From Escherichia coli (GTDB taxonomy: Bacteria > Pseudomonadota > Gammaproteobacteria > Enterobacterales > Enterobacteriaceae), in the NCBI RefSeq assembly GCF_003334355.1, contig NZ_QOWP01000005.1: a DNA stretch of 64,000 bases; one strand, given 5' to 3'. Within the stretch, counting starts at the first letter, position 1; each line of letters opens with the position of its first letter. Positions 8,236 to 58,607 of this stretch are shown in pieces. Below the pieces are notes generated by a model that had not been told where the DNA came from, searched no databases, and was given only the letters and a program-made list of their open reading frames with translations. Position numbers and translations under genes: made by a program.

Positions 8236-8264
8236 AAAAAAGCACCTTTTTAGGTGCTTTTTTG
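8236..8264 (+). terminator. Rho-independent terminator after cysK
   Basis: aaaaaagcacctttttaggtgcttttttg: hairpin plus T-run. Confidence 0.8.
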
Positions 8265-11190: not shown

Positions 11191-11221
11191 AAAAATGGCG
11201 CCCATCGGCGCCATTTTTTTA
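11191..11221. terminator. Bidirectional rho-independent terminator shared by crr and convergent pdxK
   Basis: aaaaatggcgcccatcggcgccattttttt: perfect hairpin flanked by A-run and T-run. Confidence 0.8.
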
Positions 11222-42863: not shown

Positions 42864-43317
42864 CTGCTTCCTCCTGTTTGGTGAGAGATGCCAGATAATC
42901 CACCAGTTGCTGCACGCTTTGCGGGTCGTGGCTGTTTAGCACGAAAATCGGCTCTTCGAAACCCGTCTCAAGCAATAACTTTCGCGTTGCGGCGACGTCA
43001 GCATCTGGCATGTCCGTTTTACTGATGACGGCGATTTGCCGTTTGCTGACGCCAATATCCAGCAACCCGGCAGGCAACCGACTTTCCGGGTCATTTGCGC
43101 CATGGACATAGATCAGCATGTCTACATCCTGTAGCGTGGTAATTAAGGCGTGATACCAGCGGGGATGGTTAAAATATTCACCCGGCGTATCAATATCGCC
43201 CTTATCATTAAATTCCACGGCCTGTGTTTTTCTGGCGAGGGTATAATTCCCCTGCAACGCATTAAATAACGTTGTTTTTCCTGCCCCGACGCTACCCACA
43301 AACGCAATTCGTTTCAT
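42838..43317 (-). CDS. eutP: P-loop NTPase EutP
   Basis: 159 aa; Walker A GSVGAGKTTL. Confidence 0.93.
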   Translation of the reverse strand: MKRIAFVGSVGAGKTTLFNALQGNYTLARKTQAVEFNDKGDIDTPGEYFNHPRWYHALITTLQDVDMLIYVHGANDPESRLPAGLLDIGVSKRQIAVISKTDMPDADVAATRKLLLETGFEEPIFVLNSHDPQSVQQLVDYLASLTKQEEAGEKTHHSE

Positions 43318-43329
43318 GAATGCCTCGTA

Positions 43330-43665
43330 TTAACTTTTGGTCATTTCACAAAGCGTATAATTTAATAAGCGACCTAAACCGCTGACGGTTTGTGATAACG
43401 CTTCTTCTACTGCGCCCACCGAGCCATAAATCACCAATGCACCGCTGAATCGGTCGAGAAAACCGATATGCACATCAGCGGCTTTCAGCGCTAAATCACC
43501 GGCGATCATCGCCGTTTCGCCGGGAGTTAGCGTCATAATGCCAATTGCGCCCGCATCCGGAACGCCGATTTTCTTCGCCAGTTCCTCACCGGGATGCGCG
43601 ATGAGATGCGCCAGTGTGACCTGTTTGCCGGGCACAAATTCCTGAATGATGCGTTCTTTATCCAT
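43330..43665 (-). CDS. eutS: Microcompartment shell protein EutS (permuted BMC)
   Basis: 111 aa from [15 protein letters not shown]; first gene of operon. Confidence 0.9.
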
Positions 43666-43957
43666 GAGTCGCCGCCTGTGAAAAACTTTCGTGTATCGTG
43701 ACAATTTTTCGTCAGAGTAAATAACAAAATTCGGCAAGCGCGTTTAAAAGGTGAGGTAGATCACTAAGAATGGAGAGATATTCGCTGTGGTGCATAAACT
43801 TTCATATGCAACGCATGAATATAAATAAAATAATATCGAGATATTATATAGACTGCTTTTTTTTATTATTCGCAAACTCAGTAATAAGCTTTACTAATAT
43901 ATTGCAGCTAAACTGCTTACCCTGAATATTCAGGGTAAGCGTGAGAGTTAAAAAAAA
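43666..43957 (-). promoter_or_regulatory. eut operon upstream region (expected EutR-dependent promoter) plus maeB 3' region
   Basis: 292-bp AT-rich non-coding segment upstream of eutS; contains perfect palindrome cttaccctgaatattcagggtaag (43916-43939). Confidence 0.45.
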
Positions 43958-46237
43958 TTACAGCGGTTGGGTTTGCGCTTCTACCACGGCCAGCGCCACC
44001 ATGTTGACGATACGACGCACCGATGCGATCGGCGTTAACACGTGAACCGGTTTCGCCACACCCATCAGCACCGGGCCGACAGTCACACCTTCCGAGCTGG
44101 AAACACGCAGTAAGTTGTAACTAATGCGGGCAGCTTCCATGTTCGGCATCACCAGAATATTGGCGGAACCTTTCAAAGAGCTGTCCGGCATACGGTCGTT
44201 GCGAATCGCTTCCACCAGCGCTGCATCGCCGTGCATTTCACCATCAATCATCAGTTCTGGTGCACGTTCCCTGACCAGTTCCAGCGCCTGACGCATTTTG
44301 CTCGACGACGGGCAGTCAGAAGAACCAAAGTTGGAGTGCGACAACAAAGCAACGCGCGGCTCAATACCAAAACGACGGACAGTTTCTGCCGCCATCAAGG
44401 TGATCTCCGCCAGCTCTTCTGCATCCGGTTCATCATTAACATATGTATCGGCAATAAAGGTGTTACCACTCGGCAGCAGCAGCGCGTTCATGGCACCTGC
44501 GGTGTGAACGCCATCGCGATAACCAAAGACATTTTTCACCACGCTAAAATGTTCATGATAATCACCCACCGTACCGCAAATCATTGCATCGGCTTCCCCA
44601 CGCTGAACCATGATCGCGCCGATCACTGTCGGGTTACTGATCAGCGCCCGCTGCGCCTGTTCCTGAGTGACGCCGCGACGCTTCATGATCTGGAAGTATT
44701 CGGTCCAGTACTCTTTAAAGCGCGGATCGGATTCGTTATTGACGATCTCAAAATCAACGCCCGCTTTGATCTGCAAGCCCAGTTTCTGAATGCGCATTTC
44801 GATCACGTTCGGACGACCGATAAGGATCGGTTTCGCCAGTCCCAGCGTTACCAGTTCCTGAGTGGCATGCAGAACGCGCGCCTCTTCCCCTTCCGGCAGA
44901 ACAACGCGCTTCGGCGCTTTGCGAGCCTGGGAGAAAATCGGCTTCATAAACAGGTTGGTTTTGTAAACGAACTCAGTCAGCTTGTCGATGTAGACGTCGA
45001 AATCAGCAATCGGACGAGTCGCCACGCCCGACTCCATCGCGGCTTTAGCGACCGCAGGAGCGATCTTAACGATCAAGCGCGGATCAAAAGGTTTTGGAAT
45101 GATGTATTCCGGACCAAAGCTCAGATCCTGATCGCCATACGCTGAAGCCACCACTTCGCTCTGTTCCGCATGGGCGAGTTCTGCAATCGCACGTACCGCC
45201 GCCAGTTTCATCTCTTCGTTGATGGCGGTTGCGCCAACGTCCAGCGCGCCACGGAAGATGAACGGGAAGCACAGGACGTTGTTCACCTGGTTCGGATAGT
45301 CAGAACGACCGGTGCAAATGATGGCATCCGGACGCACTTCTTTCGCCAGCGGCGGCAGAATTTCCGGTTCCGGGTTCGCCAGCGCCAGGATCATTGGCGC
45401 ACGAGCCATTTTCTTCACCATTTCCTGGGTCAGCACTTTCGGGCCGGAACAGCCCAGGAAAATATCCGCGCCTTCAATCACATCATCGAGGGTACGTTTG
45501 CCGTCATCCACCACCGCATATGCGGCTTTGGTTTCCGCCATGTTTGGCTCACGGCCCTGATAGATAACGCCTTTTGAATCGCAAACCACGATGTTATGTT
45601 TTTGCAGACCCAGCGCTACCAGCAGGTTCATACAGGCGATTGCTGCGGCACCCGCGCCGGAAACCACCATCCGCACGTCGGAGATGTTTTTCTCCACCAC
45701 GCGCAAGCCGTTGAGGATGGCGGCAGTGCTGATAATTGCCGTGCCGTGCTGATCGTCGTGGAATACCGGAATATTCATCCGCTCGCGCAGTTTCTGTTCA
45801 ATATAGAAACATTCTGGCGCTTTAATGTCTTCGAGGTTGATGCCGCCGAAGGTTGGTTCGAGCGCGGCGACAACTTCAATAAATTTGTCCGGGTCGAGTT
45901 CGTCAACTTCAATGTCAAATACATCAATCCCGGCGAATTTCTTAAACAGAACGCCCTTGCCTTCCATCACCGGTTTGCCTGCCAGCGCGCCAATGTTGCC
46001 TAACCCCAGCACCGCCGTACCGTTAGAGATCACCGCCACCAGGTTACCGCGGGCGGTATATTTGTAGGCTTTTAACGGGTCTTTTTCGATTTCAAGACAA
46101 GGTGCGGCAACGCCTGGTGAGTAGGCCAGCGCCAGATCGCGCTGTGTTGCCAGAGGCTTGGTTGGAGAAACCTGGATTTTCCCTGGAACTGGAAATTCAT
46201 GGAAATCAAGTGCACTTTGTTTTAACTGGTCATCCAT
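43958..46237 (-). CDS. maeB: NADP-dependent malic enzyme
   Basis: 759 aa; N-terminal malic enzyme domain plus C-terminal PTA-like domain. Confidence 0.97.
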
Positions 46238-58573: not shown

Positions 58574-58607
58574 AAAAAAGGCGACATGCTAATGTGTCGC
58601 CTTTTTC
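58574..58607 (+). terminator. Rho-independent terminator after acrD
   Basis: aaaaaaggcgacatgctaatgtgtcgcctttttc. Confidence 0.8.

Follow-up and report, generated by a model that had tools for sequence, protein, structure and literature searches.

The perfect palindrome between maeB and eutS raises the question of what it does at this position: whether it binds a protein, forms an RNA stem that affects read-through into the eut operon, or ends the maeB message. The first-pass annotation of the window (the whole 64-kb stretch of Escherichia coli DNA that was analyzed) had described the sequence cttaccctga-atat-tcagggtaag at 43916-43939. That description proved accurate, although it understated the dyad by one base pair per side; the complete element is a perfect 26-bp palindrome, GCTTACCCTGAATATTCAGGGTAAGC, at 43915-43940, with arms of 13 nt and 100% complementarity. 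Its placement between the two genes is likewise correct, 17 nt past the maeB stop codon (43958-43960) and 250 nt before the eutS ATG (43665). Both maeB and eutS are encoded on the minus strand, the same strand as the hairpin RNA. In the order of transcription, the maeB stop codon is followed by a 17-nt linker, the hairpin, the tail AGUUUAGCUG, an AT-rich spacer, and eutS. The following features were delineated, all on the minus strand:

43958..46237, minus strand: maeB coding sequence, NADP-dependent malic enzyme, 759 aa (ORF list; RefSeq annotation of identical K-12 and other E. coli records)
43941..43957, minus strand: 17-nt linker from the maeB stop codon to the hairpin, sense UUUUUUUUAACUCUCAC, including the T8 run at 43950-43957
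43915..43940, minus strand: 3'-terminal stem-loop of the maeB mRNA (fold, conservation, and sequence changes that give G·U pairs on the sense strand only)
43903..43914, minus strand: degenerate U-tract and tail, sense AGUUUAGCUGCA, holding the mapped maeB 3' ends at 43906-43908 (K-12 2576046-2576048)
43771..43902, minus strand: Escherichia-specific, AT-rich, polymorphic spacer from the hairpin to the conserved block (genus alignment and E. coli alleles)
43740..43790, minus strand: C-rich, G-poor patch, a candidate rut site proposed from base composition
43666..43770, minus strand: cross-genus conserved block of ~105 nt directly 5' of the eutS ATG (alignment of five genera)

The palindrome is the longest of the perfect inverted repeats in the window. 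Inverted repeats with arms of at least 13 nt were observed once, compared with a mean of 0.02 in 100 dinucleotide-preserving shuffles of the window. The remaining long perfect inverted repeats of the window are plain terminators composed of an A-run, a hairpin, and a T-run, and no second copy of the palindrome was detected in the window with up to 3 mismatches allowed. The core palindrome sequence was not found in the searchable literature, either as DNA or as RNA. Elsewhere in the window, two identical terminator palindromes (AAAAAAGCGCCCTAAAGGCGCTTTTTT) occur at 160-186 and 316-342, 156 nt apart, the former after tRNA-Lys(ttt) (80-155) and the latter after a duplicated tRNA 3'-end fragment (~293-317).

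What the palindrome encodes is the stem-loop at the 3' end of the maeB mRNA, which acts as sense RNA. The maeB sense (minus-strand) RNA folds here into a stem-loop with a loop of 4 nt (dG -19.5 kcal/mol, z = -5.4 relative to shuffles). Its stem has 11 bp in the window allele; a G at 43914, found in the commoner E. coli alleles, extends it to 12 bp. The intergenic region of the window is identical to that of E. coli K-12 MG1655, the NC_000913.3 coordinate being the window coordinate plus 2,532,140, and the hairpin corresponds to K-12 2576055-2576080 (minus strand). A maeB 3' end mapped at this hairpin, which the first-pass annotation had named as evidence against its own reading, is present in published data, 7-9 nt past the stem and with a signal R of 0.97-1.0. 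Specifically, the TRS catalogue (Nat Commun 2023, PMC10687069) reports a "Primary" maeB terminus at K-12 2576046-2576055 (window 43906-43915), and the dominant termini, 2576046 and 2576048, are located 9 and 7 nt past the last stem base, 2576055. R is defined as L/(L+D) and equals 1 when no polymerase reads through locally; two datasets give 0.967 and 0.989, and the third gives 1.0 with rank 34 (PMC10687069). The catalogue prints the same -19.5 kcal/mol fold beside the terminus and assigns it a maximum U-tract of 3 (PMC10687069). The maeB 3' end and its fold are thus already known, and they are ordinary. For talB, mog, dnaJ, and folA, too, the catalogue gives Primary termini whose maximum U-tract does not exceed 3 (PMC10687069), so a hairpin with a weak U-tract is a common arrangement. 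The curated Term-seq list of Adams et al. (2021; PMC7815308) contains no maeB 3' end.

The U-tract of the K-12 allele is poor, being short and interrupted (AGUUUAGCU). The 3' tail of the window allele, AGTTTAGCTG, has 4 T in 8 positions, below the threshold of at least 5 U in 8 for an intrinsic terminator, which explains why the terminator scan is silent at the hairpin. It had also been pointed out that the T-run lies on the wrong side for a maeB terminator, and this holds: on the maeB sense strand the T8 run is 5' of the hairpin, and the terminator scan is negative. Scanning of 43300-44300 against the sigma-70 promoter and terminator consensus sequences gave no match, and an Rfam scan of the region at a permissive E-value returned chance-level hits only (E >= 2.3), far under the gathering scores.

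To place the hairpin in its evolutionary setting, 80 species-representative Enterobacteriaceae loci were fetched using the MaeB C-terminus as the query. In 20 of these 80 loci, which belong to several genera, eutS is co-oriented with maeB and lies no more than 600 nt downstream of it. A hairpin with a T-tract is present within 90 nt past the maeB stop codon in 18 of the 20 loci with eutS nearby, so the palindrome fills the slot of the maeB terminator. Canonical hairpin-plus-T-tract terminators occupy the position of the palindrome in Citrobacter, Klebsiella, Salmonella, and Yokenella. The typical maeB terminator of Citrobacter and Klebsiella reads GGCGCGGG-TTTC-CCCGCGCC followed by TTTTTATTTT, with the eutS upstream block directly after it. 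The two exceptions among the 20 loci are an Escherichia species (L007) with the same perfect palindrome and Klebsiella pneumoniae with a different hairpin that has no T-tract. In K. pneumoniae ATCC 13883 (L036, 3401-3450), the post-maeB hairpin GCGCGCGGA...TCCGCGCGC is followed by AATATCAGG; here the U-tract of the maeB/eutS junction seems to have been lost a second time and independently.

The conserved block upstream of eutS was aligned in Escherichia, Citrobacter, Klebsiella, Pseudocitrobacter, and Yokenella. The palindrome is outside this block, at a distance of ~145 nt or more, and the non-Escherichia genera that have the block carry a canonical terminator in place of the palindrome. The ~105-nt block presumably holds the eut promoter together with the EutR site or regulatory region; open-access papers place EutR only at the promoter upstream of eutS and give coordinates for neither the EutR site nor the eutS start. 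The AT-rich spacer (43771-43902) is absent from Citrobacter and Klebsiella and partly absent from the Escherichia locus L007.

Judged by position and structure across these genera, the hairpin appears to be the Escherichia counterpart of the canonical maeB intrinsic terminator of the relatives, with a U-tract that has decayed and now varies among strains. Like the maeB terminators of Citrobacter, Klebsiella, and Salmonella (GGCGCGGG-TTTC-CCCGCGCC plus T5-6), it is a sense-strand stem-loop ~20 nt past the stop codon, has the same genomic position, and is associated with an RNA 3' end 7-9 nt past the stem. The E. coli hairpin differs from them in that its U-tract is short and interrupted, and variable or absent among strains, in that the bottom of its stem is A/U-rich, and in that apparent read-through across the spacer is sensitive to bicyclomycin.

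The maeB/eut region was found in 5409 of 5426 complete E. coli genomes, and an exact 35-mer comprising the hairpin and the adjoining linker part AACTCTCAC is present in 5246 of these 5409 genomes (~97%). Among 10 distinct E. coli intergenic alleles, none of the 26 hairpin columns varies, whereas variation affects 5 of 21 linker columns, 6 of 12 tail columns, 23 of 132 columns of the AT-rich spacer, and 3 of 108 columns of the conserved block. The difference between the hairpin (0/26) and the other intergenic columns outside the block (34/165) is significant (Fisher p = 0.004). Nowhere in the intergenic region is variation denser than in the tail, whose alleles include AGTTTAG (K-12 type, ~1200 records), GGTTTAG, GGTTTGG, GGTTTTAC, GGTTTTCC, and GGTCCAG. 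Since the stem is invariant and the tail is variable, selection acts on the stem and not on the U-tract. Applied to other alleles and species, the terminator scan does recognize the hairpin, on the maeB strand, when the tail reads GTTTTATTGC or GTTTTACTGC, and it also does so for the E. coli allele with the tail GGUUUUACUGC.

Within the linker, AACTCTCAC is invariant in E. coli. The T8 run is not conserved, being replaced by TTCTTTTTT and TTCATTCTT in other E. coli and by TTCTTAACATTAG in Escherichia sp. MOD1-EC7003. A long-range pairing between the U8 run and a downstream A8 run, which would enclose the hairpin, was considered and rejected, because other E. coli alleles break up the runs without any compensating change.

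Two E. coli genomes with rearranged intergenic regions show to which gene the hairpin belongs. In E. coli MSB1_4I (L100, NZ_LR898874.1 1507800-1516000), whose rare allele is among the 7 records of the lowest identity band, maeB and eutS are set apart by 2 kb of inserted DNA that carries a convergent gene for a family-4 glycosyltransferase, and the hairpin still adjoins maeB. Here it reads CGCTTACCCTG-TTTATT-CGGGGTAAGCG followed by GTTTTGCTG; the loop is changed, one of the pairs is U·G, and the pairing is kept. (The same strain has an IS1 element between eutS and eutP.) In E. coli GDSC2239PM (L005, NZ_CP136018.1), IS1A is located ~13 nt 3' of the hairpin, and the segment from eutS through the 5' part of eutE is lost; the hairpin and the maeB 3' end are intact. 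Retention of the hairpin next to maeB in both the insertion and the IS1-associated deletion ties it to the maeB transcript rather than to eut.

The strand on which the element acts is indicated by Escherichia sp. MOD1-EC7003 (L006), whose hairpin, GCTTACTCTGG-ATTAT-TCGGGGTAAGC, differs from that of E. coli by three substitutions and a 1-nt insertion in the loop. All three substitutions yield G·U pairs on the maeB sense RNA and C·A mismatches on the opposite strand, and the predicted folds are accordingly unequal: -19.7 kcal/mol (z -5.4) for the sense RNA vs. -8.8 kcal/mol (z -2.1) for the antisense RNA. Because these changes pair only on the sense RNA, the element most probably works as RNA and not as a DNA operator. 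With GGUUUUAUUGC as its tail, the hairpin of this allele is recognized as a terminator on the maeB strand by the scan. No hairpin allele of the MOD1-EC7003 type was detected among the E. coli genomes, where the best matches were ordinary E. coli alleles. Double compensatory changes were not observed, and the support for pairing consists of wobble-compatible transitions in two variant alleles.

A second termination signal is found downstream. Supplementary file 2 of Adams et al. (2021; eLife, PMC7815308) lists a Rho termination region at 2575860 on the minus strand, assigned to the class "orphan". In the window this is position 43720, which falls inside the cross-genus conserved block; its distance from the mapped maeB end is 186 nt, and the eutS ATG follows 55 nt further on. 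Reads upstream/downstream of it number 161/21 in untreated cells and 195/140 with the Rho inhibitor bicyclomycin (BCM), and the Rho score of 5.50 (p 1.5e-13; PMC7815308), being derived from 800-nt windows with low counts, does not separate a boundary shared by the hairpin and Rho from a hairpin that terminates on its own. The ratio of downstream to upstream coverage thus increases from 13% in untreated cells to 72% with BCM. Just 5' of the Rho coordinate, the sense strand at 43790-43740 contains 12-14 C vs. 3-4 G per 40 nt, and from this composition the patch is proposed as a candidate rut site. Dar and Sorek (2018; NAR, PMC6061677) described such an arrangement, a stable stem-loop that lacks a U-tract at the steady-state 3' end and a rut site shortly after it, as typical of Rho-terminated transcripts.

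Taking the weak U-tract together with the Rho region 186 nt downstream, termination after maeB is probably shared by the hairpin and Rho. We favor, with moderate confidence, a two-tier boundary in which the hairpin, at most a partial intrinsic terminator, sets the maeB 3' end and shields it, and polymerases that read through are stopped by Rho in the untranslated spacer. RNA polymerase leaving maeB would transcribe the hairpin, and some of the complexes would stop 7-9 nt past the stem by weak intrinsic termination. The rest would enter the untranslated spacer, where Rho may load on the C-rich patch ~115-165 nt downstream and halt the remaining polymerases before eutS or early in it. We infer that 3'-to-5' exonucleases, such as PNPase or RNase II, then trim the read-through tails back to the hairpin. 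The steady-state maeB message would in this way end precisely at the hairpin, which would also protect it, and the two tiers together would insulate the inducible eut operon from maeB transcription. In published proteomics, MaeB was not co-induced with the Eut proteins, which fits such insulation. The intrinsic component may even be negligible, given the lack of a canonical U-tract and the negative scan in the window allele. Independently of maeB, leaky transcripts in the eutS leader may be a further target of Rho.

Comparison with known systems places the hairpin between two classes. It resembles the protective 3' stem-loops of Dar and Sorek (PMC6061677) in being a stable stem-loop that has no U-rich stretch and is immediately followed by a precise 3' end, and a C-rich candidate rut site and a Rho-dependent signal downstream, which need not concern transcripts that start in maeB, may be further points in common. 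It differs from the class in that the maeB hairpins of relatives, as well as some alleles, still look like intrinsic terminators, and the maeB hairpin may represent a transitional terminator instead of a purely protective structure. With the bidirectional terminators of the window (8236-8263, 11191-11218, and 58575-58606) it shares a long perfect inverted repeat in an intergenic region; unlike them, the maeB stem has neither a flanking pair of an A-run and a T-run nor a convergent gene. Its sole T-run is 5' on the sense strand, i.e., an A-run on the other strand, so there is no U-tract in either direction. Like REP/BIME elements, the hairpin is an intergenic palindrome at a gene 3' end, able to stabilize the 3' end of an mRNA. 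Unlike them, it occurs as a single copy, and its sequence does not resemble the REP elements that follow maeB in Enterobacter, Kosakonia, and Raoultella; with one locus per genome, it is not of the REP type.

The strongest competitor to the shared boundary is a self-sufficient Rho-independent terminator, in which the 11-12-bp hairpin and UUU or UUUU release nearly all polymerases 7-9 nt past the stem and the BCM signal originates from transcripts of the spacer or the eut promoter. It would account well for the position of the 3' end and for R being close to 1, and it agrees with the canonical terminators at the same position in 18 of 20 syntenic relatives and with the alleles whose tails, GTTTTAC or GTTTTATT, pass the terminator scan. 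The strongest Rho coordinate is, moreover, 186 nt away, beside eutS and not at the hairpin. The BCM signal could reflect BCM-induced initiation in the AT-rich spacer or at the eut promoter instead of maeB read-through, in which case the Rho tier would be unrelated to maeB transcripts. However, the window allele, with its 4 T in 8 positions, failed the scan, and some E. coli alleles (GGTCCAGC) have essentially no U-tract and an intact hairpin. The increase from 13% to 72% with BCM is also hard to reconcile with efficient release at the hairpin without Rho unless new initiation is invoked. We regard this explanation as possible, yet less likely than the shared boundary.

Much less probable is a conditional read-through element, i.e., modulation of the hairpin, or of a factor on it, that couples the malic enzyme to ethanolamine catabolism. 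The adjacency and co-orientation of maeB and eut in 20 of 80 loci from several genera, the strict conservation of the hairpin but not of the U-tract, and the large read-through under Rho inhibition are in line with this idea, and a metabolic link of MaeB with ethanolamine-derived carbon was proposed in a published discussion. On the other hand, we observed neither an antiterminator pairing, the predicted U-run/A-run pairing not being kept in other alleles, nor an Rfam match; MaeB is not co-regulated with the Eut proteins, and the plain strong terminators of the relatives point to insulation rather than coupling. A related proposal, that the locus is a tunable gate at which tail alleles (AGUUUAG, GGUUUUAC, and GGUCCAG) and low-Rho conditions set the level of maeB read-through into eut while the hairpin stays invariant and the U-tract drifts, is similarly improbable; if true, it would provide a strain- and condition-specific basal expression of eut without EutR. 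The first-pass suggestion of an RNA stem that affects read-through into eut consequently stands in part: an RNA stem is indeed present at the boundary, and there is some control of read-through, but this control probably comes from Rho, and no regulator at the palindrome is indicated.

The alternative suggestion of a protein binding site has found no support. As a DNA operator, the 26-bp dyad would be bound by a dimeric transcription factor regulating eut or maeB, and a perfect 13+13 dyad that is very unlikely to arise by chance and is invariant in ~97% of E. coli genomes could be viewed as such a site. Nevertheless, MOD1-EC7003 has lost the dyad symmetry of the DNA and kept the RNA pairing on one strand only, the hairpin follows maeB, and the palindrome is missing from the genera that retain the eutS upstream block. 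Its position is poor for either promoter, since it is located ~145 nt or more upstream of the eutS block and downstream of maeB, and its sequence did not appear in the searchable literature. To our knowledge, the half-site spacing fits none of the consensus sites of the ARG box, Cra, LexA, and CRP. An operator is accordingly very improbable. Least credible of all is a functionless relic, whether a palindrome that arose by chance, the scar of an insertion, or one copy of a repeated extragenic palindrome, for which the location at the edge of the Escherichia-specific inserted spacer could be cited, but which is contradicted by the chance expectation of 0.02 per window, by the single-copy status of the palindrome in the window and the genomes (the two places per genome being its match to itself on both strands), by polymorphism significantly below that of the flanks, and by the coincidence with a mapped RNA 3' end.

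The assignment of the palindrome to the maeB mRNA fixes the 3' boundary of the maeB transcription unit, which carries little weight beyond annotation. It also implies that eut is insulated from maeB by the hairpin, probably with a Rho-dependent stop behind it. The comparison of genera and alleles further suggests that, within one genus, a canonical intrinsic terminator has given way to a hairpin in which purifying selection maintains the stem and the U-tract decays, and the locus offers a natural example of the gradient that leads from intrinsic terminators to protective stem-loops at the ends of Rho-terminated transcripts.

Turnover of hairpin-forming sequence has a hot spot in the 3' flank of maeB. 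Many loci that have no eut beside maeB (among L025-L085), from Enterobacter, Raoultella, Kosakonia, Leclercia, and others, carry REP-like or other repeated palindromes downstream of maeB, together with a convergent gene. In the window itself, an imperfect inverted repeat, TGTGGTGCATA / TATGCAACGCA, with 82% complementarity is located at 43786-43815, and MAFFT sets the Citrobacter/Klebsiella maeB terminator opposite this repeat, in an alignment that is weak in AT-rich sequence. Going by this placement, the repeat may be a decayed relic of the ancestral terminator, in which case the palindrome would have been brought in by an insertion.
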